Position numbers and translations under genes: made by a program. The notes under the pieces were generated by a model. It was not told the DNA's origin. It saw only the letters and a program-made list of their open reading frames with translations, and did no database searches. A DNA stretch of 64,000 nucleotides, from assembly GCA_965203265.1 (NCBI GenBank), contig CBDBBV010000002.1:1554773-1618772 (forward strand), read 5' to 3'. Positions 33,165-64,000 of the stretch are shown in pieces; position 1 is the first letter of the stretch, and each line of letters begins with the position of its first letter. Source of the DNA: Candidatus Poriferihabitaceae bacterium (lineage in GTDB: Bacteria; Pseudomonadota; Gammaproteobacteria; Arenicellales; Poriferihabitantaceae).

Positions 33165-34217
33165 ATGAAAGAAACACTGACCATCACTCGCCCCGACGAT
33201 TGGCATGTACATCTGCGTCAGGACGAACTGTTAGCCCACGTGGTCGCGCACACCGCCGAGAGATTTGCCCGCGCCATGGTCATGCCGAACCTGTCGCCGC
33301 CCGTGGTCAGCACCGCTCGGGCGCTCGACTATCGCGCCGAGATTATGGCAGCCGCGCCGGTGGAAGCCGGATTCAACCCGCTGTTGTCTCTCTACTTGAC
33401 CGACAACACTCCCCCCCGCGAGGTGCGCGAGGCGGCGGCGCAGCCGGCCATCGTCGGCTTCAAACTCTATCCGGCCGGCGCCACCACCAACTCGGATTCC
33501 GGAGTGACCAGAATCAGCCGCATCATGCCGGTGCTGGAGGCCATGGCGGAATGGGGCTTGGTGCTGCAGGTGCATGGGGAAGTAACCGATCCGCAGGTGG
33601 ATGTGTTCGACCGCGAGGCGGTGTTCATCGAGCAGGTGCTCATCCCCCTGCAGCGGGAGCTGCCGAACCTGAAAATCATCCTTGAGCATGTAACCACCGA
33701 ACAGGGCGTGCAGTTCGTCAAGCAGGCCGGGGGCAATGTGGCGGCGACCATAACGCCGCACCACCTACTGTTCAATCGCAACGAGATTTTTCGCGGCGGG
33801 ATTCGCCCGCACGCCCATTGTCTGCCGGTGCTCAAGCGCGAACGGCATCGGCTGGCGCTGCTCGAGGCCGCCACTTGCGGCGATCCATCGTTCTTCCTCG
33901 GCACCGACAGCGCCCCCCATACCCGAAACGCCAAGGAAAGCGCGTGCGGCTGCGCCGGCATCTATTCCGCCCACGGCGCCATGGAACTGTATGCCGAGGT
34001 GTTCGAGGGGATGGGCGCGCTCGACAAACTCGAAGGGTTTGCCAGCCATTACGGCGCCGATTTCTACGGCCTTGCGCGCAATTCGGGGAAATTGACTCTG
34101 GAGAAAAATGCTTGGCGGGTGGCGCCCGCCTATCCGGCCGGGGGCGGCGATGAAATCGTTCCCCTGCGCGCCGGAGAGACGATCCCCTGGTCGATAGCGG
34201 CAGTCGATTACCGATAG
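33165..34217 (+). CDS. pyrC: dihydroorotase (class II, homodimeric type)
   Basis: [29 protein letters not shown] and GTDSAPH motifs. Confidence 0.9.
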
Positions 34218-36196
34218 CCCGACTGATAGGCGGCGTTCGGGTTCTCGAGGGTCTGCCGATCGATGGCCACATCCGCGTTTTGCCGTATGGTCTGGCGCAA
34301 CTGCCGGTACAAACCGTCGCCGTCGCGCGCCAGCAGCTGTTGCCGCAAGGCGGAACGTTCGGCCTCGTCAACGCTTTCCACATCCCCCGGTATCACAGAT
34401 TCGAGGGCGTACACCGCGTAGTCGCCATTGCTCAGAGAAACGCCGCCGTACACGGTCGCGCCGTCCGCCGGAGCGGCTTGAGCGAAAACCGCTTCACCCA
34501 GTTCCGCCAGTTCCGCCGGCACTTCATCGCGCGTTTCGGCGAGGGGTTGGGACTCGAGTTGCCGAGCGGCCAGCAGCCCGGCCCAATCGCCCTGCTCTCC
34601 CTGCTCTCCCTGCTCTCCCTGCTCTCCCTGCTCGGCATTCAAGTCGGCCACCAGCTGCTCGCCCAACTGCCGCGCCCGCTGGCTTGACTGTTGCAGTTTC
34701 AGGTTTTGCTCGATGGCGTCGCGGACGCTCTCGAACGGTTGCGGACGGGCTTCCTCATAGTCGGCCTTGTGGACCGCCACCAGATGGTCGAAGCCGAGTT
34801 CGATGGCGGCGCTGTTCAAGTCCTCCTCGAGCACATCCTCGCTGAACGCCGCGCGCCGCACCGCGGCTTCGTCGGCCACCCCCTCGCCGGCGTCTGCGGT
34901 AAACCAGTCGGTCTGCTTGATTTCCAGCCCGAGATCATCGGCGGCGACGGCGAGGCTGTCGGGGTTCTCGAATACCCGATTCTCGAATGTCTCGCCCAGT
35001 TCGGAGAACAGATTTTCGGCGTGGGCGCGCCGCACCGCCTCGGCGACTTCCTCGCGTACCTCATCCAGCGGCTGTTGCTGCTCCTCGCGCAATTCCGTCA
35101 ACTTGATGATGTGGTAGCCGAAACGGGTTTCGATGGGGCCGCGAATTTCGTCCTCGACCATGTCGAATACCGCTTCCTCGAAGGGCGCGACCATCTGCCC
35201 GCGAGTGACCACGCCGAGGTCTCCGCCGTTCTCCTTGGAGCCCGGATCGTCGGAATGGCGCTGCGCCAGATCGGCGAAATCCGCGTCCTCGACGCGAGAT
35301 TCGGCCAGCACCGTTTCCGCCTCGGCCCGCACTTCATCACGCTCGGCTTGTTCGGCGTCGGCGTCGACGGCGAACAGGATATGGCTTGCCCGGCGGGTTT
35401 CCGCCTGTTTGTAGCGCTCGCGGTTTTGCCTATAGGAATCCTGAATTTCAGATTCCGACGGCTCGACGCCGCGCGCCAGATCGTCCACGGCGAGCTCGAT
35501 GTAGTCCACCTTGATGCGAGCCGGCGACTGATAGCGAGACAGGTTGTCCTGATAATACTGCTCCACGGCGGCGTCATCGATGTCGATTTCCGCATCGAAA
35601 CGACTGGTCGGCACGATCACATAGTCGGTCGTGCGCGTTTGCGCTTGCAGTTGCAACAGCCGCTCCACCTCCCATTCGCTCACGAATGCCGAGTCGGTTA
35701 CCGCCGAGGACAGCAGTTCGATGACGGCGATTTGCCGCTCGGCGGTCTCATATGCCTGCGGCGTGAAACCGTTGCGCCGCAACAGATCCCGGTACAGCTC
35801 GGCATCGAATTGCCCGTCGCGGAAAAATATCTCGGTGGATTGGATGCGCTGGCGTAGCCGTTCATCGGACAGATGGTAATCGCGCTCGCGCACATACTGG
35901 CCCATGAGGCGGCTCGCGATCATCGATTCGACCACCCGATTGCGCATTTCGGCGCTCTCCAGTAGCGACGAATCGATGGCGCCGTCCGATTGCTGCAGTA
36001 GCGCCTGACGCTGCCGAGACAGCTCGTTCTGATAGGCGTACAGCGGGATTTTTTCGCCGTTGACCGTAGCCACGGGGATGTCGGCGGGATTGCCGAAATA
36101 GGACTGGATTCCCCACAGCGCGAACGGGATGGAGATGAGGATGACGACCACCCAGGCCAGTCCGCCGGTTGCCTGTTCGCGGATTTTGGTCAGCAT
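34208..36196 (-). CDS. ppiD: periplasmic chaperone / peptidyl-prolyl isomerase PpiD (SurA N-terminal domain plus parvulin domain)
   Basis: N-terminal TM anchor [25 protein letters not shown] and a parvulin core ([30 protein letters not shown]...GYHIIKL). The conserved position is downstream of hupB and the tRNAs. Confidence 0.85.
34591..34633. repeat. in-frame 9-bp tandem repeat (CCTGCTCTC, 4.8 copies) inside ppiD, encoding (EQG)n
   Basis: Read directly. The protein shows [16 protein letters not shown]. Confidence 0.9.
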
Positions 36197-36273
36197 ATAA
36201 TTTTCACGGGGATGAATTTGAATTGCGAGGCGCTAGATTGTACCGCTCACGGGCACGGCTTGCTCGGAACAAC

Positions 36274-36301
36274 AAAAAAATGCGAGACGGGGGCGTCTCG
36301 C
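36274..36301 (-). terminator. rho-independent terminator after the tRNA-Val/tRNA-Asp unit
   Basis: The minus strand reads GCGAGACG-CCCC-CGTCTCGC followed by ATTTTTTTG. Confidence 0.6.
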
Positions 36302-36316
36302 AATGGTAATCGTCTG

Positions 36317-36393
36317 TGGCGGAGCGGACGGGGCTCGAACCCGCGACCCCCGGCGTGACAGGCCGGTATTCTAACCAACTGAACTACCGCTCC
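36317..36393 (-). tRNA. tRNA-Asp (GTC)
   Basis: The reverse complement GGAGCGGTAGTTCAGTTGGTTAGAATACCGGCCTGTCACGCCGGGGGTCGCGGGTTCGAGCCCCGTCCGCTCCGCCA is nearly identical to E. coli tRNA-Asp. Confidence 0.95.
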
Positions 36394-36401
36394 TGAGATG
36401 A

Positions 36402-36477
36402 TGGTGGGCGCTGCAGGGCTCGAACCTGCGACTTTCGCCTTGTAAGGGCGACGCTCTCCCAGCTGAGCTAAGCGCCC
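36402..36477 (-). tRNA. tRNA-Val (TAC)
   Basis: The reverse complement GGGCGCTTAGCTCAGCTGGGAGAGCGTCGCCCTTACAAGGCGAAAGTCGCAGGTTCGAGCCCTGCAGCGCCCACCA has the anticodon loop CTTACAA. Confidence 0.95.
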
Positions 36478-36514
36478 GGGAAAGACTCGCTTACCCGCTA
36501 CCCCATAAACCGGA

Positions 36515-36787
36515 TCAGTTTACGGCGTCCTTCAAGCCTTTGCCGGCCTTGAATTTGGGCACGCAGGTGGCCTTGATGTGAATGGTTTCGCCGGTGCGCG
36601 GATTGCGCCCAGCGCGCGCTGGACGGTCGCTGGTGGAAAATGTTCCGAATCCGATGAGTGAAACCGTGCTGCGATTGGATAGCGCCTCGGTAATGGATTC
36701 GAACACGGCATCTACAGCGCCGGCCGCATCGGTTTTGGTCAAATCTGTTCGGGATACCACCGCATCGATCAGTTCAGCTTTGTTCAT
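36515..36787 (-). CDS. hupB: DNA-binding protein HU
   Basis: MNKAELIDAVVSRTDLTKTDAAGAVDAVFESITEAL...GFGTFSTSDRPARAGRNPRTGETI, 90 aa. It uses an internal start in ORF 36515..36925. Confidence 0.9.
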   Translation of the reverse strand: MNKAELIDAVVSRTDLTKTDAAGAVDAVFESITEALSNRSTVSLIGFGTFSTSDRPARAGRNPRTGETIHIKATCVPKFKAGKGLKDAVN

Positions 36788-37123
36788 GATACTGTTTCCT
36801 CTCTGTTGGGTTGAAATAAACGAAATCGATTCATGCTCACCGAGCGGGCTGTCACCCTGACAGTACCTGAAACGCTCGACGGTTCTGTATCGCCTTCGCC
36901 AATTACGCCGCTTTGCTACGGCCACCGAGACGGCACTTGTTCAGCGAGATACCCCCGCCTGCGCCGCTACGCCGAGCAATCATAATAAAACCCGCACGGC
37001 AAAAGCAATAACCGATTGCCGCGATTTTCGCCAATTACCCAGAAATTTTGCCGACGGCGGCGGATGAAATCCGCGCGGACAATGGGTTCGGGAGAAATTT
37101 CGCGCAACTGCCCGCGCGAAACC

Positions 37124-37141
37124 GCGCACGAAAACGTGCGC
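37124..37141 (-). terminator. possible lon terminator hairpin
   Basis: GCGCACG-TTTT-CGTGCGC on the minus strand lies about 30 nt after the lon stop. The trailing T-run is weak. Confidence 0.3.
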
Positions 37142-37169
37142 AAAATAGTAGCCGACGGCGGTGCCTACC

Positions 37170-39590
37170 CTAGTGGGCGATTACATTGGCGCCGCTTTCT
37201 GCCTTCTTCCTGCGCCGGGGTTTTGCCGCCGCCTTGCTGGATTTGGCGTTGGCGCTAGGTGTTTTCTCCAGAGCCAATTCGAGCACCTCGTCGATCCACT
37301 TCACCGGCTTTATCTGCAATTCGCGGCGAATTTTTTCCGGAATCTCCCGCAATTCGCGGGAATTTTCAAATGGGATCAGCGCCGTTTTCAGGCCGGCGCG
37401 ATGCGCCGCGAGCAATTTTTCCTTGAGGCCGCCGATGGGCAGCACCTCGCCGCGCAGGGTGATTTCTCCGGTCATGGCAACATTCGACCACGCCGGAATG
37501 CCGGTCAGGGCGGAGATGATGGCGACGCACATGCCGATGCCGGCGCTGGGGCCGTCCTTGGGCGTCGCCCCTTCGGGAACATGGATGTGGATATCCCGAT
37601 TCTGGTGGAACTGGGCGTCGATGCCCCACTGCACGCTGCGGCTGCGCACCACGCTGATGGCCGCGGTGATGGATTCCTGCATGACATTGCCGAGTTTGCC
37701 GGTGTACAGGTGCTTGCCCTTGCCCGGCATGACCACGGCCTCTATGGTCAGCAACTCGCCGCCCACCTCGGTCCACGCCAGCCCGGTTACCTGACCGACC
37801 TTGTTCTCCTGCTCGATGCCGTTGCGGCGGTATCGCTTGACGCCGAGGTATCTTTCCAGACTGGCCTGCGTGATGTTGGCTCGCTTCTTGCGCTTGTTGA
37901 GGAGGAATTCCTTCACCACCTTGCGGAAGATTTTCGCGATCTCCCGCTCCAGACTGCGCACTCCGGCCTCGCGCGTCCAAGACGCGATGATCTCGCGGAT
38001 GGCTTGGCTGCTGATGCGAACCTCGGTTTTCTTCAGGCCGTTGTTGGCGCGCTGTTTCGGCAGCAGATAGCGGTTGGCGATCTCGCATTTTTCCTCCTCG
38101 GTATAGCCGGAAATGCGGATGACCTCCATGCGGTCGAGCAGTGGACTAGGTATGTTGAGGGTGTTGGCCGTGGCGATGAACATGACATCGGACAGGTCAT
38201 AATCGACCTCCAGATAGTGATCGCCGAATGTATGGTTCTGCTCCGGATCGAGCACCTCCAGCAGCGCCGAGGACGGGTCGCCGCGAAAATCCATGGACAT
38301 CTTGTCCACTTCGTCGAGCATGAAGAGCGGGTTGCGCGTCTTGCCCTTGGCCAGATTCTGGATGATCTTGCCCGGCATCGAGCCGATATAGGTGCGCCGA
38401 TGCCCGCGAATTTCCGCCTCGTCGCGCACGCCGCCGAGCGGCATTCGCAGGAATTTGCGGTTGGTGGCGCGCGCGATGGACTGCCCCAGAGAGGTCTTGC
38501 CCACGCCGGGCGGGCCCACCAGACAGAGGATCGCCGCCTTCGACTTCCGCACCCGCTGCTGCACCGCCAGATATTCGAGAATCCGCTCCTTGACCTTTTC
38601 CAGCCCGTAGTGATCCTCATCCAGTATCTTCTGCGCCTTCACCAAGTTCTTGGAGATGCGACTGCGCTGTTTCCACGGCGCCGCCAGCAGCCAGTCGATG
38701 TAATTGCGCACCACGGTCGCTTCCGCCGACATGGGCGACATCATCTTCAATTTTTTCAGCTCGCCCTCGGCTTTCCCCCGCGCCTCGTCCGACATGCCGG
38801 AATCGGCAATTCTGGCGGTAAGTTCGTCGATCTCGTTGGGAATATCGTCCATCTCTCCCAATTCCTTCTGGATCGCCTTCATCTGCTCGTTCAGGTAGTA
38901 CTCCCGCTGGCTCTTTTCCATCTGCTTCTTGACGCGGCTGCGAATGCGCTTTTCCACCTGCAGCAGGTCGATCTCCGATTCCATGACGCCGAGAATGTGC
39001 TCCAAGCGCGCCGTGGCGTCGATCAGTTCGAGAATTTTCTGCTTGGCATCGTTCTTCAGGTTGAGGTGGGCGGCGATGGCGTCGCCGATGCGGCCGGGCT
39101 TGTCGATGCCGGCGAGGGAGGTGAGAATCTCCGGCGGTATCTTGGGATTCAGTTTGACATATTTCTCGAATTCGGCGGCCACGGCGCGCATCAGCACGTC
39201 CGATTCCCGCGTGGAAATATGCACATCGTCGACCACTTCCGCCTCGCAGGTGAAGCCCTCCTCCTCGTCCTGCGGGCTGTGAGTGAATCGGGCGATGAGC
39301 GCCCGCCGCTTGCCCTCCACCAGCACCTTGACGGTGCCGTCCGGCATCTTCAGCAGCTGCAGGATGGAGGCGACGGTGCCCACCCGGTAGATATCGTCCG
39401 GCGTGGGCGAATCCTGCAGCGCGTCCTTCTGCGCCACCAGCAGGATGTTGCGTCCGCTCGTCATGGCCATATCCAGCGCCTTGATCGAGCGCGTCCGCCC
39501 GACGAACAGCGGGATCACCATATGGGGGAAAACCACCACATCGCGCAACGGCAATACCGGCAGGTCGGTTTCGATCAGGGGGTCGGACAT
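37170..39590 (-). CDS. lon: ATP-dependent protease Lon
   Basis: 806 aa with Walker [10 protein letters not shown], the proteolytic site PKDGPSAG and a LON N-domain. Confidence 0.97.
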
Positions 39591-39644
39591 GGGCGGAAGT
39601 TCAGAGGATGAGACTGGGCAGTCGGCCGCTCGGCCGGATGAGCG

Positions 39645-40934
39645 TCAGGAGGAAGCTCCGGCGGTCAATTTCGCCTTGGCTTCCTGATAGACATACAAGG
39701 GTCGCGAGCCCTCGACGATGACCGACTCGTCGACGATCACCTTCTTGATTCCCGCGATGGACGGCAGTTCGTACATGGTTTCCAGCAGGGCATTTTCGAG
39801 AATCGAGCGCAGGCCGCGCGCGCCGGCCTTTCGTTCCATCGCCTTTTTGGCGATCTGGCGCAGCGCTTCGGGGCGGAATTCCAGTTCGACCCCCTCCAGT
39901 TTGAACAATTTGGCGTATTGCTTGGTGAGGGCGTTGCGCGGCTCGGTGAGAATGCGAATGAGCGCCAACTCGTCCAACTCCTCCAGAGTCGCGACCACCG
40001 GCAGGCGGCCGATGAATTCGGGGATCAAGCCGTATTTGATCAGATCTTCGGGTTCCAGTTCCTGCAGCAGTTCGTTGGCGCGCTCACCGGCGGTTTTTTC
40101 CCGAATATCGGCGCCGAAGCCGATGCCGGATTTTTCCGTGCGCCCCTGAATGACCTTTTCCAGCCCGGCGAAGGCGCCGCCGCAGATGAACAGGATATTG
40201 CGCGTGTCCACCTGCAGAAATTCCTGCTGGGGATGCTTGCGCCCTCCCTGAGGCGGGATGGAGGCGACGGTGCCCTCGACCAGCTTCAACAGCGCCTGCT
40301 GCACCCCCTCGCCGGAAACGTCCCGAGTAATGGAGGGGTTGTCGGATTTCCGCGAAATCTTGTCGATCTCATCCACATAGACGATGCCCTGCTGGGCTTT
40401 TTCGATGTTGTAGTCGCAGGTTTGCAGCAGTTTCTGGATGATGTTCTCGACATCCTCGCCCACATAACCGGCCTCGGTCAGGGTGGTGGCGTCGGCGATG
40501 GTGAAGGGAACATCGAGCTGCTTCGCCAACGTTTCCGCCAACAGGGTCTTGCCCGAGCCGGTGGGGCCGATGAGCAGGATATTGCTCTTGGAAATATCCA
40601 CCTCGCCGACCGCCTGTTCGTTTTCGATGCGCTTGTAGTGGTTGTAAACCGCCACCGAGAGGGTCTTCTTGGCGACCTGTTGGCCGATGACATAATCCTC
40701 CAGGAAATTGTGAATTTCCGGCGGAGTGGGGAATCTCTTGGCGTCCCCCTGAGCATTCGCGCCGGCGCCGTTGCCGCCTTCATTGCGGATGATTTCGTTG
40801 CACAGCTCGACGCATTCGTCGCAGATGTACACGGACGGGCCGGCGATCAGCTTGCCCACATCGTGCTGACTCTTGCCGCAGAACGAGCAATACAGCAGTT
40901 TGTCTCCCAACTTTACGGGTGGATTTTCAGGCAT
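39645..40934 (-). CDS. clpX: ATP-dependent Clp protease ATP-binding subunit ClpX
   Basis: Zinc-binding CSFCGK...CDEC and Walker [12 protein letters not shown]. Confidence 0.97.
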
Positions 40935-41016
40935 CAGGGAAGTACATGATTGCGTAACATAACGCGAGATTGCAGGGTTTTCCGGCTTTTTTCAACCCCT
41001 TTTCATTACACGGATG

Positions 41017-41643
41017 TCATAACCGAGTGCTCAGCACCGAGTCGATGATGCCGTATTCGGCGGCCTCGGCGGCGCTCAGAAAATAGTCGCGATCGGTGTC
41101 CTGACGGATTCGCTTGAGGGTTTGGCCGGTGTGCTCGACGAATATCCGATTGAGGCGCTCGCGCGCTTGGAGAATTTCGCGGGTATGGATTTCGATGTCG
41201 GAAGCCTGCCCCTGAGAGCCGCCCAGAGGCTGGTGAATCATCACTCTGGAATGCGGCAGGGCATGACGTTTTTTCGGCGTCCCGCCAGCCAGAATGACCG
41301 CGCCCATGCTGGCGGCCTGACCGATGCACACGGTGCTCACATCGGGGCGGATGAACTGCATGGTGTCGTAGATGGCGAGCCCCGCCGAGACCACTCCGCC
41401 GGGGCTGTTGATGTACAGGGAGATGTCCTTCTCCGGATTTTCCGATTCGAGAAAGAGCAACTGGGCGACGATGAGATTGGCCATCTGATCCTCGCACTGC
41501 CCCACCAGAAACACCACCCGCTCCTTGAGCAGCCGGGAATAGATGTCAAATGCGCGCTCGCCGCGGCCGGTGGTCTCGATCACCATGGGGACCAAATTCA
41601 GGTTTTTCGGGCGGGTGGCGCCGGAATGTTCGTTGTTTTGCAT
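41017..41643 (-). CDS. clpP: ATP-dependent Clp protease proteolytic subunit ClpP
   Basis: Start at the internal ATG 41643 (MQNNEHSG...). Motifs [23 protein letters not shown] and GQAASMGA (catalytic Ser). Confidence 0.95.
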
Positions 41644-41729
41644 GTCGTTCAACCGATGATCACGCTCGCCGGGACGGGCATGGATGGAAAGGAAAATAGC
41701 GAAAAGGAAAAAGCGGCGGCTCGGCCGTA

Positions 41730-43031
41730 TCACTCGCCCGCGGGATTCATGAATTCCTGAAATGATACCTTCTTTTCGGTAACGGCGGCGGTTTCGAGCA
41801 TGCGATCGACCACCTGTTCCTCCAGCATCATCGCTTCGATTCGGCGCAATCTGGCGGGTTCGGAATAATGCCAGTTGATCCAGGCCGCGCTGTCATCGTA
41901 GTCGGCGGCCATTTCCTCGATCCTGCGACGCAGATCGGCGCTATCCACCTTCAGGTCGAATTTTTCCATGATCTCGCGGGCGACCAAGCCGATCAGCACC
42001 TGTCGCTTGGCGTCGGCGGCGAAATGCTCGCGCTTGATCTGCTGTTTCGCCATCCCCTGCGCCGCCATTTGCTGCTCGACTGCCTTCATGCGCCGCTCGA
42101 TTTCCGCTTCGATGAGCGCCGTGGGCACCTCGATTTCATTGGCCTTCACCAGCTCGTCCATGACCCGATCGCGCAGCACGGCGCGCATTCGCGTGTCCAA
42201 TTCGCGCTGCAGGTTGACCTCGATCTCCGCGCGCATCTTCTCCATGCCGCCCTCGGCAACCCCCAGTTTGCGTGCGAACGCCTCGTCGCACTCCGGCAAC
42301 ACCCGCCGCTCCACCGCCTTCACCACCACCTCGAACGACGCCGCCTTGCCGGCCACCTCGCTACCGGAATATCTATCTGGAAAGGTGAAGGCGACCTGCT
42401 TGGCGGCACCGGCCTCGAGGCCGAGCAACTCGTTCTCGAAGGGATCAAGCATATCCCCTTCCCCCAGCACCAACCGATGGTTTTCGGCGGATCCGCCGGC
42501 GAAGGGACGGCCGTCGATTGTGCCGTCGAAGTCGATGGTAATCCGATCTCCCTTTTCCGATTTTCCCTCCTTGGCGACAAAATCCGCGTGTTGCTTGCGG
42601 ATGTTCAGCAAGGTTCGCTCCACATCCTCGGCGGTTACGGCGCAGCGCGGCTTTTCGATGGTTCTGCCGGCCAGCGTGGGGGAGGGGATGGGTGGATACA
42701 GTTCGACCGTGGCGATGTAGCGAAGATCGTCCCCCGGCGCAAACGGCTTGGGTTCGATGGACAGCAAACCGGCCGGTTCGATGGCCTCCTTGCCGAGCGC
42801 TTCCCGATAGCTGGTGTTGATGGTGTCGCTGACCACCTCGTCGGTTACCTGCGCGCCGTATCTCTTATCGACGATGCCGCGAGGAGCCTTGCCCGGGCGG
42901 AAACCGGGGATGCGCGCCCGTCTGGCCAGAGCGCGCAGGCGCTTTTCGATTTCCCGCTCGACCTCGGCGTGCGGCACGGAAACCGTGATCCTGCGCTCGA
43001 TGGCGCCGGATTCTTCAACCGTTACTTGCAT
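41730..43031 (-). CDS. tig: trigger factor
   Basis: [20 protein letters not shown]...PGFRPGKAP is the ribosome-binding signature. The tig-clpP-clpX-lon order is conserved. Confidence 0.95.
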
Positions 43032-43083
43032 GGTTACGATCGTCCGAAAAAAGAATGGTTCGAAGTTTGAATAACGATGAGAC

Positions 43084-43170
<87 letters not shown>

Positions 43171-43200
43171 TACCTCGTCTTGCCGTCCACCGCGAATTGC

Positions 43201-43276
<76 letters not shown>

Positions 43277-43309
43277 TGACCGCGCCTCGCGCGCAAAATT
43301 GGGGTGAAC

Positions 43310-43386
43310 GATGGGACTCGAACCCACGACGGCCGGAATCACAATCCGGGGCTCTACCAACTGAGCTACGTTCACCATAATTTCAT
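43310..43386 (-). tRNA. tRNA-His (GTG)
   Basis: The reverse complement GGTGAACGTAGCTCAGTTGGTAGAGCCCCGGATTGTGATTCCGG...TCACCCCA has the extra 5' G typical of tRNA-His. Confidence 0.9.
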
Positions 43387-43430
43387 TCATCCGGCCTGCG
43401 CCCGCACATATAAGCTTTCATGGCGCGCCC

Positions 43431-43507
43431 GACAGGATTCGAACCTGTAACCTACGGCTTAGAAGGCCGTTGCTCTATCCGATTGGGCTACGGGCGCAAA
43501 GATTGAA
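43431..43507 (-). tRNA. tRNA-Arg (TCT)
   Basis: The reverse complement GCGCCCGTAGCCCAATCGGATAGAGCAACGGCCTTCTAAGCCGTAGGTTACAGGTTCGAATCCTGTCGGGCGCGCCA. Confidence 0.9.
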
Positions 43508-43530
43508 AATTTTACAAAACTGGTCGGGGT

Positions 43531-43607
43531 AGAGAGATTTGAACTCCCGACATCCTGCTCCCAAAGCAGGCGCGCTACCAGACTGCGCTATACCCCGCTT
43601 TTCGCCG
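43531..43607 (-). tRNA. tRNA-Pro (TGG)
   Basis: The reverse complement CGGGGTATAGCGCAGTCTGGTAGCGCGCCTGCTTTGGGAGCAGGATGTCGGGAGTTCAAATCTCTCTACCCCGACCA. Confidence 0.9.
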
Positions 43608-57311: not shown

Positions 57312-57614
57312 ATGCCGCCCGGAACAGTGCACTGCGTCATATTGCGGCGGGAAGCCGAAGCCCTTGATTCGCCCCCTTATCCGGGGGAATTGGGGCAGCG
57401 CATCTTCGAGAATGTGTCGAAACAGGGCTGGACCCTGTGGCTACAGCGGCTGACCGCCATCATCAACGAAAACGGCCTGAACACCTCCGACCCGCGCACG
57501 CTGGAATTGGTGGAGAAACATATGAACGGGTTCTTTTTCGGCGAGGGGGAACACGGCTACGGCCAACTGCCGGCGGGTTTTCACGCCGCCCACGCCGCCG
57601 GCGAGGAGCGATAG
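57312..57614 (+). CDS. yggX: oxidative damage protection / Fe(2+)-trafficking protein (YggX family)
   Basis: [52 protein letters not shown] matches the YggX pattern. It uses the internal start at 57312. Confidence 0.8.
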
Positions 57615-57617
57615 CGG

Positions 57618-57923
57618 ATGGGCGGGGATACGGAATTCGAGAACGAACCCGCGCGCGGGCGAGGCGGCGGGTGGTCCAGGGCGCGGGTTTTCGCGCTGGG
57701 ATTTCTGATCGGCTTCGTGCCCCTGCCGTTGGGTATGCTCATCGCCGGTTTCCTGCCGGGAATACGCGCGGCAACCGACATTCTCGTAGTGCCCGGCGTG
57801 ATCCTCTCCCTGCCCTTCCTCAACCTCGTTGCCAGCCCGGTGTGGGCCATCGGGTGCATCGCCGTATTCAACGGCGTCGCCTACGGGCTTGTTGCCTTGT
57901 TGATTCGCAGATGGCGGAGGTAG
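57618..57923 (+). CDS. hypothetical small membrane protein
   Basis: 101 aa with three hydrophobic segments. It starts 4 nt after the yggX stop. No family was recognised. Confidence 0.4.
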
Positions 57924-57928
57924 GCAGT

Positions 57929-58609
57929 ATGAGTGTGGCGGCAACGGCCAGAAAATCGCCAGACGGGGTCGCTACTAGCGATTTGATATGTAGCGCGATC
58001 ACCGGCCAAAACGAAACTCTGTTTCCGCAAGTACTTGCACTCCATGTTCAGGACGGTGCCCTCGTTGCGGATGTAACCTACGGGAAGGGCGTTTTCTGGA
58101 AGAAGGTTCCCGAGGACAAATATCAAGTGCTGCCCACCGATATAAGCATGGGCGTCGACTGCCGTGATTTGCCATATTCAGATGAATCGATTGATTGCGT
58201 GGTGCTGGATCCACCCTACATGGAAGGGTTGTTTCGGCCGAAAAAAGACAGCATGGCGGGTAACGGCAACTATGCCGCATTTCGCAAAAACTACTCGAAC
58301 GGCGACACTTACCACGGCGAGCCGAAATATCATGATGCCGTTTTAGACTTGTATTTTTCCGCTGGCCGGGAAGCGTTGCGCGTTCTCAAGCCGAAAGGTG
58401 TGTTTATCGTCAAATGCCAAGATCAGGTGAGCGCGAATATACAGAACCTTACACACGTCTCACTGATCAACGAATACGCCCGATATGGTTTTTACGCCAA
58501 AGATCTTTTTGTGCTGGTACGAGCCAACAGACCATCGGTGAGTCGCATTCTCAAGCAAGTACACGCACGCAAGAATCATTCCTACTTTCTCGTTTTCATC
58601 AAGAAATAG
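57929..58609 (+). CDS. DNA methyltransferase (DPPY-type, N6A/N4C) with no intact partner nuclease
   Basis: An AdoMet-like motif [12 protein letters not shown] is followed by the catalytic VVLDPPY. GC is lower than the flanks. The start is 57929 or 57911, both in frame. Confidence 0.75.
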
Positions 58610-58734: not shown

Positions 58735-59432
58735 AAAACCGCATCGTCCTCGTCGATCACCACGAAAATCCGCCGGATGATCGGGTGTCCACCCATCTGG
58801 CGGCGCTCGGCTACGACCTCGACTGGCGCCGTCCGGTGAACGGCGACCAACTCGGCGAACCCGCCGGCGATGTGGCCGGATCGGTGTTGTTCGGCGGCTT
58901 GCACAATGTGGATGAAATGGATGAACACCCGTTCCTGCACGATGAAATTGCTTGGATTCACGCCTGCCTCGCCCGCGATGTGCCGCTGCTCGGCATCTGC
59001 CTCGGCGCCCAGTTGATCGCCCACGCCCTCGGCGCGAAGGTCGCACAAATGGCCGGTGGGCAATGCGAATTCGGCTATTATCCCATCACCCCGACCGCCG
59101 AGGGGCGCCGATGGATGCCGCAGCCGCTACATGTTACCCAAGCCCACTTCCAACAATTCGACCTACCGAGCGGGGCAACCCTGCTGGCAACCGGCGAAAA
59201 CTGCGTCAATCAGGCGTTCCGCTACGGCGAGAATATCTATGCGTTGCAATTTCATCCCGAGGTTACGCTGGGAATTCTGCGGCGCTGGCAGGATGAGATC
59301 GGAGATGATTTCAACGCGCCCGGAGCGCAGACGCGGGAGGAGCAAAACGCGCTGGCGGCTCGCCATGATGCGCGTCAGCATGACTGGTTTGTGGGGTTTT
59401 TGGGGCGGTTGTTCGGGCGAGATAGCGGCTGA
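58731..59432 (+). CDS. class I glutamine amidotransferase (GuaA-N-like)
   Basis: A nucleophile elbow (PLLGICLGAQL) and a HPE triad region (ALQFHPEV). Confidence 0.8.
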   Translation: MKNRIVLVDHHENPPDDRVSTHLAALGYDLDWRRPVNGDQLGEPAGDVAGSVLFGGLHNVDEMDEHPFLHDEIAWIHACLARDVPLLGICLGAQLIAHALGAKVAQMAGGQCEFGYYPITPTAEGRRWMPQPLHVTQAHFQQFDLPSGATLLATGENCVNQAFRYGENIYALQFHPEVTLGILRRWQDEIGDDFNAPGAQTREEQNALAARHDARQHDWFVGFLGRLFGRDSG

Positions 59433-59721
59433 AAACGCTTGTGGGTGGGATTGGGTTACGCCGACACCGCCTGAAGCGGGAAACTTGATTGGAGGGAGCA
59501 AGCGTTCCGGCAACGCGGAAACCGGATTCTGGTTGCCGCTCCCGATGTTGCAGATGGTAGAGCCGGTAATGACGGCGCCCGCCGGCCACTTGGACCCAAG
59601 GCGGGCGCCGCCTGCACCGCACGCTCCGCGCGAGGCGCGGTGCGCTCGACATGGCCGACCCTGGACAGCCCTTGCACACTCCCCGCGCCCGTAGGCGCGA
59701 GAACTCCGGCGGCGGGCCGTG

Positions 59722-59832
59722 CTGGCAACGCGGAAACCCACATTATTGTTCCGGTTTCCGGTGGTGTTCCTGTTGCGGTTGGCGGAGCGGAGATTCCGCG
59801 GATTGTTGTTCCACGAACCGCCCCGCAACACC
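59722..59832 (-). repeat. DGR template repeat (TR), 111 nt
   Basis: It matches the VR (61475-61585) at 98 of 111 positions. 12 of the 13 mismatches are at TR adenines on the minus strand. Asn codons AAC/AAT are abundant. It begins 6 nt after the RT stop. Confidence 0.9.
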
Positions 59833-59838
59833 CGGCGT

Positions 59839-60966
59839 TCAGGGGCCGACCAGACTTCCGGGCCAACCCGGCGGTGCCGCCGGATGGCGCGAAAGACGTT
59901 TTGCGGCGGAGCCGAACGGCTCGCCGCGAAGAAGTGCCCGGCGCAAGCGCCGAGTATTTGCGTGCCGCGCGTGCGCCACCCAGCTCGCGATGTGCGGACG
60001 CGCCTCCTCCGGAGTCATGGTGCCGGCCCGCACCCGATCGCGCATACTGCGCAGCCGACCACGGAAGCGGCGTACATTCTCCTCGGGCAACTGCCGCCGA
60101 CCATCCGGCAGCAGAACATAGCCGAGAAAGGTGGTGGGCTCGGTCGTTTCCGCGATGTAGGTCTTGCGCGGATGCAGGGAGAGTCGACGCCGGGCGAGAT
60201 ACGCCGCGATGCGTTGACGCCACTCCGCCAGCACTTCGGGGCTGTCGTGAAACAGGGCGAAGTCGTCCACATAGCGCAGATACCCCGGCGCGATCAGTAC
60301 TTCCTTGACGAAGTGATCCAGACCATCGAGATGCACATTGGCGAACAGCTGGCTGGTCAGATTGCCGATGGGCAGGCCGCGGCGGCGCTCGAAGGGCGTG
60401 AGCAGGTCGTCTCCCGGATAGTGGATATGCACCGGCTCCTGCGGATTCGAGCCGTCGATGATGGCGTCGATAAGCCACAACGTGCGCTTACATGCAATGC
60501 GGCGGCGCAAGTCCGCCTTCAGTATTTCATGGTCGATGGCCGGGAAGTAGCGATAGAGATCGCAACGCAACACATGCGCGAATTTGTCGCGGAAGCGTTC
60601 GTAGCGGGTAACCGCTCGGTGCGTGCCCTTGCCTCGGCGGTTGGCGTAGCTGTCGAAGATGAAGCCGCGCTCGAACAGCGGCTCGATTACCGCGAACAGC
60701 GCATGGTGCACCACCCGATCGCGAAACGGGGCGGCGGACACGGTACGCGGCTTGGGGTCGCGGATGGCTATCTCTACATAGCGCCCCGGTCGCCACTTTC
60801 CGGCAAGCAACTCGCGTTCCAGACGCAACACCTCGCGCTCCAGATTAGCGAGGAATGCGGCCACCCCGGGCTTCCTGCGCTTGCCGAGCGCGGCGCGCTG
60901 TGCCGCCGCTTCCAGCACGGAAAACGAGGCGATGCGCGGAAACAGGCCGTCAGTTCGTTGCGGCAT
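59839..60966 (-). CDS. DGR reverse transcriptase
   Basis: RT motifs include the catalytic YVDD box (GYLRYVDDFALF) and the DGR-diagnostic motif LPIGNLTSQLFANVHL. The start at 60966 (MPQRTDGLF...) overlaps the avd end by 17 nt. Confidence 0.9.
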   Translation of the reverse strand: MPQRTDGLFPRIASFSVLEAAAQRAALGKRRKPGVAAFLANLEREVLRLERELLAGKWRPGRYVEIAIRDPKPRTVSAAPFRDRVVHHALFAVIEPLFERGFIFDSYANRRGKGTHRAVTRYERFRDKFAHVLRCDLYRYFPAIDHEILKADLRRRIACKRTLWLIDAIIDGSNPQEPVHIHYPGDDLLTPFERRRGLPIGNLTSQLFANVHLDGLDHFVKEVLIAPGYLRYVDDFALFHDSPEVLAEWRQRIAAYLARRRLSLHPRKTYIAETTEPTTFLGYVLLPDGRRQLPEENVRRFRGRLRSMRDRVRAGTMTPEEARPHIASWVAHARHANTRRLRRALLRGEPFGSAAKRLSRHPAAPPGWPGSLVGP

Positions 60967-61321
60967 GATGGGTTCTCTGCCAGCCGCCCACCAGCCGCCC
61001 GACCTCATCCACGCGCCGCGCCGCGTATTCGTAGCGGCGTCGGTCGAGGTAGCTCAAGTCCTTGGCGAGACGCAGTAGTAGGCGCAGTTTGTCGAGGTCG
61101 ATGTTGACTCGCTTGAGGATGCGGGTGCGGTCGCGGGTGAAGGTTGCCTCGGTGAGAGCTTCCAAGCAGATGACGGCGGTGGTTTGGATGCGGTCGCCGA
61201 GGAGGAACTTTTGGCTACGGGGGAATCGATCCAGAGTGGGGATCAGCCATTGCGCGAGCTGATACATCGCCTCCAGCGCCGGGCCGCTTTGGCGGGAGGG
61301 GGTTGTGGCGTTGCGGGTCAT
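60950..61321 (-). CDS. avd: DGR accessory variability determinant (Avd, four-helix-bundle protein)
   Basis: It is about 120 aa and basic and helical. ...LAQWLIPTLDRFPRSQKFLLGDRIQTTAVICLEAL...RLAKDLSYL is typical of the Avd / 23S rRNA-IVS four-helix-bundle family. The start is uncertain (61375, 61321 or 61267). Confidence 0.75.
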   Translation of the reverse strand: MTRNATTPSRQSGPALEAMYQLAQWLIPTLDRFPRSQKFLLGDRIQTTAVICLEALTEATFTRDRTRILKRVNIDLDKLRLLLRLAKDLSYLDRRRYEYAARRVDEVGRLVGGWQRTHHAATN

Positions 61322-61410
61322 GTTATTGGGGGCTTTGGTGGTGGGGGTTGTGGTGGGAGGGGTTATTCCACCCATACATCATGACGACACCGCCCAGCGA
61401 AAAAATCCGA

Positions 61411-61428
61411 CCGGGGGCAAGCCCCCGG
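61411..61428 (-). other. GC-rich hairpin (7-bp stem, 4-nt loop) downstream of the VR
   Basis: CCGGGGG-CAAG-CCCCCGG lies 47 nt 3' of the VR homology end, between the target gene stop and avd. Confidence 0.5.
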
Positions 61429-61458
61429 TACCCCCGCAAGAGGCAAAGAGACAAAGAT

Positions 61459-62274
61459 TCATGGGGCGATTGTCCTGGCAACGCGGATACCCACAGAAGT
61501 GCTCCGGTCCCCGGTGGTGCTCCTGAAGCGGTTGGCGGAGCGGAGATTCCGCGGATGGCTGTACCACGAACCGCCCCGCAACACCGCATGTTCACAATCT
61601 CCCGCCTCCCACACACTCCCATCCGTCGGCGCTCCTTCGTAACTTTCATTCCAACAATCTCCAACCCACTCCCATACATTTCCGTGTACATTGTACAAAC
61701 CGAACGCATTCGGCGGATACTTACCCACCGTCACCGTCTTGCCGACTTTTTTGCCATAGTTCGCTTTTGACGTTGAAATCCTGTTTCCCCAGTGATAGCG
61801 CCCCGTGGTTCCCGCCCGCGCCGCGTATTCCCATTCCGATTCACTCAAGAAGCGATATGTCTCCCCGGTCTCGCCACTTAGCCAGTCCAAATATCCCTGT
61901 GCATCATCCCAGCCCACATTGATGACCGGACGCCTCCCCCAGCCCCAACCTGCATCACCTGGTTCATACCCGCCACAGCCACCGGCGGAAACGCACGCAT
62001 CCCATTCATCGAAGGTTACCTCGTACACCCCAACCGCAAACGGCTTCGCGATGGTTACTTCATGCACCGGCCCTTCATCGTTGTCCCGCTCCCCCTCCGA
62101 ATCCGGCGAACCCATCATGAACGAACCGGCCGGTACAACCACCATCTTGGGGCAGTCCGCGCAATCGCGGAAGGTATCGCCGGGTTCCAGTTGGTTTTGC
62201 GCCGGGGCGGATATCGGCAACAGGCCGAGCATTACAGCCGGCAATAGTGATTTGATTGTCAATGATATGTTCAT
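61459..62274 (-). CDS. DGR target: secreted formylglycine-generating-enzyme (SUMF1)/C-type-lectin-fold protein with a C-terminal variable region
   Basis: Signal peptide MNISLTIKSLLPAVMLGLLPISAPA and FGE-sulfatase domain motifs (PVINVGWDDA, YRFLSESEWEYAARAG, NAFGLYNVHGNVWEWV, RGGSW). The VR occupies roughly the last 42 codons, ending 4-5 codons before the stop. Confidence 0.85.
   Translation of the reverse strand: MNISLTIKSLLPAVMLGLLPISAPAQNQLEPGDTFRDCADCPKMVVVPAGSFMMGSPDSEGERDNDEGPVHEVTIAKPFAVGVYEVTFDEWDACVSAGGCGGYEPGDAGWGWGRRPVINVGWDDAQGYLDWLSGETGETYRFLSESEWEYAARAGTTGRYHWGNRISTSKANYGKKVGKTVTVGKYPPNAFGLYNVHGNVWEWVGDCWNESYEGAPTDGSVWEAGDCEHAVLRGGSWYSHPRNLRSANRFRSTTGDRSTSVGIRVARTIAP
61475..61585 (-). 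repeat. DGR variable repeat (VR), 111 nt
   Basis: It aligns base for base with the TR. The substitutions are confined to TR-adenine positions, apart from one T-to-A near the 3' end in the putative IMH. Confidence 0.9.
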
Positions 62275-62325
62275 TTTCGGTTCTCCTTTATCGCTAGTTA
62301 CATGATTTGGGTGATTTCTGCATTA

Positions 62326-62772
62326 CTAGGCCATGGCTGGGACTTTGGGCTTTCTTTCCATGCCATATATCATTTCCGGCAAATCCGCACATAACCAGGG
62401 TAGCGCACGGCAAATGAAGCAATCGATGGGGATTCTGACTGCGTCGGAATGAGAGATTTTCACTACAACGAAATTTTCGTATTCATCCTTCGATATCCTA
62501 TAAAAATAGAAATCCCGATTAACCCAAATCGAGTTATCAAGCGCGACTCTGACTACGGAATCTGTAATACCGTGAACCAGTTCGCGCACATCAAAAATCT
62601 CCCCAGCACTATACAGGCTAAATATGGGCGCATTCGAATGACCTATATCGCTCGATCTGATTCTTAAATCGATGAGATCGGCAGGTTGGGGATCGTGCAT
62701 ATTCAACAATTCATCCAGAGAATTCACTCTTTGCATTTGTCGAGAGCCACGTTCTTCAATTGAATCTGTCAT
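62326..62772 (-). CDS. hypothetical protein (AT-rich gene upstream of the DGR target)
   Basis: 148-aa ORF whose start overlaps the upstream ORF stop (ATGA at 62769-62772). It is markedly AT-rich. No recognisable family. Confidence 0.5.
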   Translation of the reverse strand: MTDSIEERGSRQMQRVNSLDELLNMHDPQPADLIDLRIRSSDIGHSNAPIFSLYSAGEIFDVRELVHGITDSVVRVALDNSIWVNRDFYFYRISKDEYENFVVVKISHSDAVRIPIDCFICRALPWLCADLPEMIYGMERKPKVPAMA

Positions 62773-63296
62773 GATGATTTACCTCTTTCAGGTGTATTGG
62801 ATTTTGTGTTTCGTCTATTTCTGTATTGCAAGAATGTCAAGACAAACCACGCCAGCATTGCTGAACAAGCAAGGAGAAAACTCGTAAAAGAAACCTTTGC
62901 CAAGTTAGTCAAATTATAAAATTCTCCCTTGGTAACACACTCAGTGAAATACTGTGAAGGTAATTGCAAAGAAGTTTTGCAACTTCCAATGGAATTCTGT
63001 TGATAAATTTCCTTGAAGAAACTTGAAATTATTGATTGAATTAAAAAGTTGAATACATATGTTATGGCGCAAAATACCACACACACGAGAAGTATATTGG
63101 GATAGGGAATCCTTCCGACACTACCACCTCTATCGCTTCCAAGCGCCTCATTGATAAGGGTTTCCTTGACCAGAAAAACGATCACACCTATCATAAAATA
63201 GCAAGTTATGTTGGTGGAATAAGTAAGCACATCATATGAATCGATGTATCGCATGAGAAAATAGTTCATTTCGGTTGGCGCTTCGATCATCATCAT
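62769..63296 (-). CDS. hypothetical membrane protein (AT-rich)
   Basis: 175-aa ORF with 3-4 hydrophobic segments. This is the lowest-GC stretch of the window. No recognisable family. Confidence 0.5.
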   Translation of the reverse strand: MMMIEAPTEMNYFLMRYIDSYDVLTYSTNITCYFMIGVIVFLVKETLINEALGSDRGGSVGRIPYPNILLVCVVFCAITYVFNFLIQSIISSFFKEIYQQNSIGSCKTSLQLPSQYFTECVTKGEFYNLTNLAKVSFTSFLLACSAMLAWFVLTFLQYRNRRNTKSNTPERGKSS

Positions 63297-63301
63297 CCCC
63301 C

Positions 63302-64000
63302 CTACTCCACTTCCACAATAATGTGCGCGCTCGACCCCGCTCCCCCGCGATGGCGCCAGGATTGGGTTTGGGTGTTTTTGCCCTCCACGCGGATTTCTCC
63401 GGTGTTCTCGTCAGCATATGAGCAGTTGCCCTTGTTCCCGCTGCCGTTTATGGCAAACAATTTCACGCGGTTGCGACCCTGTTGCACCCGCACATCGTCG
63501 CAGTCCCAATCATTGTCGATTTCGCCGTAGAACACGCTCCCGCCATTCACCGATACCCGCACCCGATCGCCGTCCTCGCATTCGTGGTCGCGCACGCAGA
63601 CTCGTATTTCTCGCTGACCCTCGGATATGGTGATGTTGAAATCGCGCAGGGGTTGCGCCGAAAAGGTGTCCGGTGCCCAGTTGGTGCGGACGATTTTGTA
63701 AGTGTCCTCGTCGTCACGAACATGCCGCTCGAATTCACGCTCGGCGGAGGAGGAGGATTTTTCGAAGTAGCAATAACTTTCGGAACGGGCTGGCTCGAAT
63801 CCCTCGTCCTCCAGATATTCGTGGAAGGCGTTTTCCACCCCCATTGTGTAGGAATAGTCGCCGAGGAATATCGCGCTGTAATATCGCGTGCGCGGATCGT
63901 CCGAAAAGGATCCCATGATACAGAATATGTAGTCATCGTCATCAGCGTTTGCAGGGGCCGGGACGAAACTGGCGAAAATCAGGAGCAGTGCTGTGTAGCC
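63302..64000 (-). CDS. hypothetical secreted protein, 5' end beyond the window
   Basis: The frame of ORF 63302..63916 stays open to position 64000. The extra residues (...ALLLIFASFVPAPANA/DDDDY) look like a signal peptide, so the real start lies beyond the window. The C-terminus is Cys/Asp-rich and probably beta-rich. Confidence 0.5.
   Translation of the reverse strand, partial: GYTALLLIFASFVPAPANADDDDYIFCIMGSFSDDPRTRYYSAIFLGDYSYTMGVENAFHEYLEDEGFEPARSESYCYFEKSSSSAEREFERHVRDDEDTYKIVRTNWAPDTFSAQPLRDFNITISEGQREIRVCVRDHECEDGDRVRVSVNGGSVFYGEIDNDWDCDDVRVQQGRNRVKLFAINGSGNKGNCSYADENTGEIRVEGKNTQTQSWRHRGGAGSSAHIIVEVE

Follow-up and report, generated by a model that had tools for sequence, protein, structure and literature searches.

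A predicted chromosomal diversity-generating retroelement with a PvdO-like target gene in a Candidatus Poriferihabitaceae bacterium

Diversity-generating retroelements (DGRs) in which the accessory gene avd is followed by the reverse transcriptase (RT) gene and the template repeat (TR) are assigned to architecture B2, and C-type-lectin targets of the FGE-sulfatase type make up category b, the largest class, with 19% of the curated DGRs (Wu et al. 2018, NAR 46:11). In DGRs with Avd, the TR is closely followed by a stem-loop of about 9 bp, which binds Avd and in Pseudomonadota is capped by UNCG tetraloops. A duplex joins the sequences up- and downstream of the TR, and in the DGR of Bordetella phage BPP-1 the TR and the spacer (Sp) RNA form a template-primer duplex (Handa et al., 10.1101/2023.10.23.563531). 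Downstream of the variable repeat (VR), hairpins of the Bordetella type have GC-rich stems of 7-10 bp and 4-nt GRNA loops and lie 4-34 bp from the VR (Guo 2011, PMC3240598). Here, a stretch of 64,000 nt from a Candidatus Poriferihabitaceae bacterium (Gammaproteobacteria, Arenicellales; assembly GCA_965203265.1, contig CBDBBV010000002.1, positions 1,554,773 to 1,618,772) was analysed. This stretch is referred to as the window, and all coordinates are given in its own numbering. The minus strand of the window carries, at 59571-62274, a cassette with the order target gene, avd, RT gene and TR, which is, as judged from its sequence, very probably a complete chromosomal DGR with a VR written by adenine-mutagenic retrohoming. 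The element is a fresh example of a well-known system and nothing new in kind.

The TR (59722-59832, minus strand) is 111 nt long and non-coding and begins 7 nt past the stop codon of the RT gene. The VR (61475-61585, minus strand) has the same length and lies in frame at the 3' end of the target gene. When TR 59832-59722 was aligned with VR 61585-61475, the minus-strand alignment was gapless over 111 nt, with sharp limits of homology at both ends, and contained 13 mismatches, 12 of them at TR adenines and the remaining one at a TR thymine. The TR holds exactly 27 adenines; by chance, 12 or more of the 13 mismatches would fall on them with a probability of 4.9e-8 (hypergeometric). The substitutions at adenines comprised five A>G, four A>T and three A>C changes. 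An earlier inspection of the letters alone (the sequence-only reading) had proposed that the differences were adenine-specific, with 12 of about 27 TR adenines changed, and had set a tabulation of the mismatches by TR base as a test. On realignment the adenine bias held and the mismatches were not spread over the four bases. The ten codon changes listed in that reading were likewise all correct; nine of them alter the amino acid, and GGA>GGG is silent.

Read in the frame of the VR, the TR encodes V L R G G S W N N N P R N L R S A N R N R N T T G N R N N N V G F R V A, with a codon design of 11 AAY, AGG, two ACC and GGA, and its adenines occupy the first, second and third codon positions in a ratio of 15/11/1. 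Changes from A to any base (A->N) cannot create a stop codon anywhere in this sequence; they reach every codon of the VR except ATC (Ile263) and make about 4e14 amino-acid combinations available. A search pattern in which every A of the TR was replaced by N was run over the whole 64-kb window and matched the TR and VR sites alone, with 0 matches expected by chance. Two copies of 111 nt that lie 1.75 kb apart on the same strand could in principle also stem from an ordinary segmental duplication of the 3' end of a gene, followed by divergence through normal mutation or gene conversion. This explanation deserves practically no credence: the mismatches are concentrated, with the probability given above, on one base of one copy, and this A-rich copy is non-coding and sits directly past a bRT-like RT gene, inside the conserved DGR RNA described below. 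Moreover, the same arrangement recurs in dozens of relatives.

The genes of the cassette are all located on the minus strand. The target (variable-protein) gene (61459-62274) encodes 271 residues with an N-terminal signal peptide and an FGE-sulfatase/PvdO-like domain, and the VR corresponds to residues 231-267. It is followed by avd (60950-61375), an open reading frame (ORF) of 141 codons in which the ATG at 61321 is probably the conserved start, for a product of 123 aa. The protein was recognised by the Pfam model bAvd (PF22296, 6.6e-20, 72 bits against a cutoff of 40), by PHROG 3206, 'Avd protein of DGR' (8.5e-24), and by the NCBIfam model NF033474, DivGenRetAVD (100.2 bits against a cutoff of 80). 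The RT gene (59839-60966) shares an overlap of 17 nt with the end of avd and encodes 375 aa from its conserved start MPQRTDG, although the ORF can be extended upstream to 61008. Its product matched RVT_1 (1.2e-16) and PHROG 1423 (1.6e-110) and carries the motifs IGNLTSQ and YVDD. The top match in the PDB was the RT of the Bordetella phage, bRT (8ub7 series, 2.6e-41), and a group II intron RT was matched at 9e-20. The locus fits the definition of architecture B2, as avd, RT gene and TR succeed one another on a single strand and the target gene lies upstream. The claim of the sequence-only reading that the locus follows the classic DGR design with AAY codons agrees with the mismatch statistics, the presence of Avd and a bRT-like RT, the location of the VR at the C terminus of a protein with an FGE/C-type-lectin fold and the absence of any reachable stop codon.

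Relatives were collected by two scans. A scan of species-representative genomes with the target protein yielded many FGE paralogues, of which 80 loci were kept, and the top match in this collection was 63% identical. An RT match was present near the target in just 6 of the 80 kept loci, four of these six had an A-biased TR/VR pair, and the three of those loci with an intact cassette all showed the order target-avd-RT-TR. The nearest named genomes with a cassette belong to Acidobacteriota (Ca. Multivorans) and Myxococcota, where the RT is 67-68% identical. A scan of metagenomes with the RT also returned 80 loci, at 62-75% identity. More than 20 relatives have the order avd-RT-TR with an upstream target, and wherever a contig includes both repeats, the TR comes after the stop codon of the RT gene or overlaps with it and the mismatches fall mostly at TR adenines.

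Of the homologues of the target, the closest (P0002, 76% identical) is encoded on an ENA metagenome contig of 18.2 kb (ERZ25068511), hereafter L163. The cassette on this contig (3700-15200) is a sister element in which RT and Avd are each 97% identical to their counterparts in the window and the TR shows 2 differences over its 111 nt. Around this cassette lie eight FGE-sulfatase genes, at least five of which have VRs biased to TR adenines. As an observation in its own right, L163 forms a multi-target counterpart of the single-target cassette in the window. Comparison of the orthologous VRs of the window and L163 showed differences at 12 of the 27 A sites but at just 5 of the 84 remaining ones (Fisher P=1.3e-5). 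The two TRs are unlike at two sites, and at each of these the VR has the base of its own TR, a correspondence that, read from the aligned sequences, is direct evidence of TR-to-VR information transfer within the lineage. The concerted changes probably arose on the L163 side, because the other L163 VRs retain the bases found in the window.

Directly 3' of the TR lies a conserved structured RNA (59639-59721, minus strand), an analogue of the Bordetella Sp RNA with CCA and CATGTCGAG motifs, which holds a 10-bp stem plus the 3' strands of two other helices. A covariance model (R1), built from 20 relatives with the window excluded, gave a sole strong match in the 64-kb window, at 59721-59639 (61.5 bits, E=6.5e-14), and one match per locus in 79 relatives, at 58-97 bits. 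The post-TR element common to the relatives is about 84 nt long and rigidly spaced, since the distance from a point 75 nt upstream of the TGGAAY motif to the end of the element is exactly 252 nt in most of them. No Rfam family was matched in 59000-62400.

Three helices were evaluated in an alignment of 71 sequences. Unconstrained duplex prediction between the TR flanks was uninformative in the GC-rich sequence of the locus and was replaced by explicit counting of covariation. H1 is a long-range duplex of 10 bp between TGGTCGGCCC (59843-59852, minus strand) and GGGTCGGCCA (59661-59652); its 5' strand falls within the last RT codons, so that the helix brackets the TR. In H1, 97.3% of the alignment cells were paired and compensatory changes were present in 8 of 10 pairs. 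H2 comprises 7 bp between ACGGCCC (59714-59720, minus strand) and GGGCTGT (59671-59665), begins directly past a terminal C/G difference between TR and VR that is considered below, and had 87.6% of its cells paired, with compensatory changes in 6 of 7 pairs. H3 (59703-59680, minus strand) is a stem of 10 bp with a UACG tetraloop, which also shows covariation. For the three helices together, 93.4% of the cells were paired, compared to 35-45% with slid partners, and 24 of 27 pairs were compensatory; the covariation score was 0.568, whereas the slid controls did not exceed 0.136. All three helices are kept in the window, two of them via G-U wobbles. Judged by topology and by analogy, H1, H2 and H3 would be equivalent to the RNA elements of BPP-1. 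Further downstream, two distal GC-rich hairpins are predicted at 59571-59647 (minus strand; minimum free energy fold, z = -2.67), and similar distal hairpins are found in relatives.

Two candidates arising from this region were considered and rejected. The window reads CATGTCGAG where the relatives have a near-invariant CATGATGAG, and a strict pattern search accordingly missed the motif in the window. A decay of the post-TR RNA was rejected as the cause because the same variant is present in the sister element L163, which has several diversified VRs; CATGTCGAG is thus regarded as a variant of the lineage. The second candidate was an ORF of 222 codons (59163-59831, minus strand) with a GTG start at the second base of the TR, which extends across the Sp-like RNA. 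This ORF, of a high-GC type that annotators might call, is almost certainly spurious, since it overlaps a convergent gene for a glutamine amidotransferase and the region is kept as an RNA with helices and length-variable spacers.

The sole non-adenine difference between the repeats places an A at VR position 61488 opposite the T at TR position 59735 (minus strand), which converts TTC to ATC and Phe263 to Ile. The sequence-only reading had placed it 14 nt from the end of the homology, and on realignment it was indeed the 14th base from that end. The same reading had also suggested that the change might be the distinction between an initiation of mutagenic homing (IMH) sequence and its variant IMH*; as a functional difference, it would mark the VR as the recipient. 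The position is the expected one, as the change lies 3' of the last mutated adenine, within the adenine-free stretch of 21 nt in which the repeat ends, and cDNA integration starting upstream of it would never overwrite it. This interpretation does not hold up well against the comparative data, and we consider it highly improbable. In about 22 related pairs, TR and VR alike have T at the base matching TR 59735, as do all five VRs of L163; in addition, residue 263 is Phe in 55 of 60 homologues and Ile in 4 of 60, so that the change alters a conserved residue. Because of this distribution of T and Phe, the T>A change at 61488 is considered private and derived, and the preferred reading is a point substitution of the ordinary kind in the VR, or a rare non-A error, which was not overwritten afterwards.

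The difference that does recur in the clade is located elsewhere, one base past the 3' boundary drawn in the sequence-only reading. At this terminal position the TR has C (59721) and the VR has G (61474, minus strand), after which a shared AC comes next. A C or T in the TR was opposed by a G or A in the VR in 19 of 20 related pairs (including loci L004, L017 and L083-L158) and in all five VRs of L163, and the terminal TR column was a pyrimidine in 66 of 71 TRs. At the loci that carry CGG in the VR and CGC in the TR, the pyrimidine/purine difference is not due to coding, since Arg is encoded in both cases. The discriminator site lies directly 5' of the covarying helix in which the post-TR sequence pairs with the Sp-like RNA just before the invariant CCA (59664-59662). 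It is placed, by comparison of sequences, as a candidate single-base discriminator between donor and recipient or a candidate marker of the start of cDNA synthesis.

A second conserved feature is found on the recipient side alone. Just past the stop codon of the target gene lies a pyrimidine-rich tandem motif (61437-61456, minus strand) with the sequence TCTTTGTC TCTTTGCC TCTTG, for which the consensus of the clade consists of YCTTTACC repeats. The motif YCTTTAC occurred at a mean of 1.5 copies per 80 nt past the VR, as against 0.07 in the background, and two or more copies past the VR were present in 12 of 24 loci but in 0.8% of the background windows. It is followed, between target and avd, by a GC-rich hairpin with an 8-bp stem and a CTTG loop and then a T-run (61400-61429, minus strand), which was obtained in a scan for terminator-like structures. 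The succession of tandem repeats and GC hairpin is found at the same position in about 20 related loci, where the stem sequence is kept too and the T-run is usual; at the matching distance past the TR the hairpin has no counterpart. The hairpin resembles an intrinsic terminator, could be a target-site hairpin or cruciform of the DGR, or could be both. For the module as a whole (61400-61456), possible roles are those of a terminator, of an element for target recognition or of a regulatory site. Tentatively, and as a possibility that is more doubtful than favoured, the 59721/61474 discriminator and the VR-only YCTTTAC/hairpin module may form a hitherto undescribed pair that sets donor versus recipient and the start of cDNA synthesis. 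In that joint reading, the module may replace the canonical IMH/GRNA hairpin in target recognition.

The target protein contains the Pfam domain FGE-sulfatase (PF03781, 1.1e-52). Its top sequence match in the PDB was PvdO (5hha, 3.8e-66, 43-45% identity), and it matched TvpA (2y3c) at 4e-13 with 24% identity. An AlphaFold2 (AF2) model based on 60 homologues reached a predicted local distance difference test score (pLDDT) of 87.4 and a predicted template modelling score (pTM) of 0.85. Searches with this model in Foldseek gave template modelling (TM) scores of 0.77-0.79 for PvdO, about 0.65-0.70 for FGEs and 0.70 for TvpA 2y3c. In the NCBIfam PvdO equivalog model (NF051459), the target scored 250.4 bits, under the cutoff of 500; because this cutoff is missed, the protein is PvdO-like in fold and is not called PvdO. 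Among the enzyme-specific NCBIfam models EgtB, SenA, OvoA and GldK, it stayed far under the respective cutoffs, and a match was obtained with the general PF03781 alone.

As a stand-in for mapping the variable residues onto the three-dimensional model, the entropy per position was determined across the 60 homologues. Positions corresponding to A-bearing TR codons had a mean entropy of 2.86 bits, compared to 0.58 bits at the remaining VR positions (P=2.5e-6); outside the VR, the protein averaged 1.06 bits. The positions of the A-bearing codons are therefore hypervariable family-wide. Since the C-terminal region of the target is both hypervariable and TR-templated, its sequence indicates a putative role in binding rather than an enzymatic one. 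The analysis thereby marks one secreted FGE/PvdO-like protein as a programmable putative binding protein with about 4e14 possible C-terminal variants. FGE paralogues of the target are present elsewhere in the genome. Two of them, P0003 (73% identical) and P0004 (69% identical), may be remote targets of the TR. In a test at the protein level, P0004 had one residue beyond the A->N reach of the TR, a result that is non-discriminating because homologues from unrelated genomes score 0-1 as well.

The features described are compatible with the following sequence of events. The avd-RT-TR transcript, or a sub-transcript, would fold such that a long-range duplex brackets the TR and the Sp-like RNA comes to lie just 3' of it. 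A complex of RT and Avd would then bind this RNA and reverse-transcribe the TR from its 3' end near 59722; C, G and U would be copied faithfully, whereas random bases would be inserted opposite A. Subsequently, the cDNA would replace the homologous VR of 111 nt at the 3' end of the target gene. In this way up to 14 codons (11 AAY, AGG and two ACC) could be rewritten in the putative ligand-binding C-terminal part of the protein, and a stop codon would never result. The order of the steps, priming in cis from the Sp-like RNA and the onset of cDNA synthesis close to 59722 are deduced by analogy with the BPP-1 model.

Activity of the DGR at present is plausible, because the ORFs, the motifs and the RNA helices are intact. 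Several observations weigh against the interpretation of the cassette as a complete DGR. The only non-adenine difference in the VR hits a nearly invariant Phe. The post-TR RNA of the window, at 61.5 bits, ranks at the low end of the family range of 58-97 bits. The hairpin past the VR lies about 45 nt from it and has a CTTG loop instead of the GRNA loop of Bordetella. The concerted changes seen in comparison with L163 prove transfer in the clade and not in the genome of the window. Finally, no other assembly encoding an identical RT, target, P0003 or P0004 is on record.

Some of these points would also be expected of a relic, that is, a DGR that diversified its target in the past and is now inactive, its adenine-specific pattern being a fossil of earlier homing. 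The substitution at the conserved Phe, which was not overwritten, and the low score of the Sp-like RNA within its family fit such a history, as does the presence of one target in the window against at least five VRs in the sister element. It is contradicted by the intact ORFs for Avd, RT and target, by the presence of the catalytic YVDD and of IGNLTSQ and by the retention of all three RNA helices. The CATGTCGAG motif, shared with L163 and its several A-diversified VRs, points to a lineage variant, and at least one non-A difference is found in 23% of the curated DGRs, which are regarded as functional (Wu 2018). Taken together, a relic is considered unlikely, and a complete DGR whose VR was written by retrohoming from the TR stays the favoured interpretation.

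The genes tig, clpX, lon and priA and seven tRNA genes are present in the window, which is for this reason assigned to the chromosome; a derivation from a phage or plasmid was considered and rejected. The housekeeping cluster at 34208-43600 contains tig, clpX, lon, a ppiD-like gene, tRNA-Asp/Val and arrays of tRNA-Leu/Lys/His/Arg/Pro. When a phage collection was searched at the DNA level with the cassette, just a match of 71 nt inside an RT gene was returned, and a scan of viral contigs with the RT yielded one relative at 68% and one distant relative. Directly upstream of the target lie two ORFs (62326-63296, minus strand) of 148 and 175 aa with GC contents of 44% and 37%, compared to about 62% for the window. 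They had no match in Pfam, PHROGs or NCBIfam and were not found beside related DGRs, and they are likely to be part of a horizontally acquired island. The adjoining low-GC ORFs, together with the fact that the nearest cassettes in named genomes belong to other phyla, suggest that the DGR cassette was acquired horizontally. Upstream of the cassette follows an ORF of 204 aa (63302-63916, minus strand) with a homologue of 60% identity in a Latescibacterota genome (L006, 8045-8386), located about 1.3 kb downstream of an FGE-sulfatase paralogue. On the other side, a gene for a DNA methyltransferase (57437-58609, plus strand; N6_N4_Mtase, PHROG 24333, 1.4e-68; GC content 56%) is positioned about 1 kb past the end of the DGR RNA, beyond the convergent glutamine amidotransferase gene, and may be part of the same acquired region.

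The locus itself adds nothing new in kind to DGR biology. A natural data set is provided by the approximately 80 relatives, with their rigidly spaced and covarying RNA around the TR, their one-base discriminator and their post-VR module. This comparative set could guide experiments on cDNA priming and target recognition in elements of the avd-RT-TR type.

Among the known systems, PvdO (5HHA), the dihydropyoverdine dehydrogenase of Pseudomonas, provides the best scaffold match for the target, with which it shares an FGE-like fold and a periplasmic or secreted location. It differs in that the target misses the equivalog cutoff and has a hypervariable, TR-templated C terminus, and no pyoverdine genes were identified among the neighbouring genes scanned. 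The DGR of Treponema denticola and its target TvpA (2Y3C) resemble the present element in the FGE-sulfatase type of C-type-lectin fold, the C-terminal VR, the chromosomal location and the occurrence of further FGE paralogues in the genome. However, the target in the window is much closer to PvdO, both by sequence and by fold, and the Treponema DGR has another accessory gene and belongs to architecture class C (Wu et al. 2018). With the prototype, the BPP-1 DGR (mtd-avd-TR-brt), the locus has in common the A->N changes from the TR to a C-terminal VR, Avd together with an RT of the bRT type and a target with a C-type-lectin fold. In both, moreover, the TR is followed by a structured RNA that contains a stem-loop and a helix next to the 3' end of the TR, and a duplex joins the up- and downstream sequences. 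Unlike in BPP-1, the order is avd-RT-TR, such that the TR is preceded in the RNA by the end of the RT gene and not by that of avd. The element is chromosomal and not phage-borne, and its target is a secreted FGE/PvdO-like protein instead of a tail-fibre protein. The post-VR hairpin, with a T-run behind it, lies at a distance of about 45 nt and its loop is not of the GRNA type, and a single pyrimidine/purine difference at the 3' end stands in place of the several differences between IMH and IMH*. Compared to the B2 DGRs described by Wu et al. (2018), the avd-RT-TR core with its upstream target is identical, without any difference in kind. The nearest relative of this B2 element is the cassette on L163, with an RT that is 97% identical.

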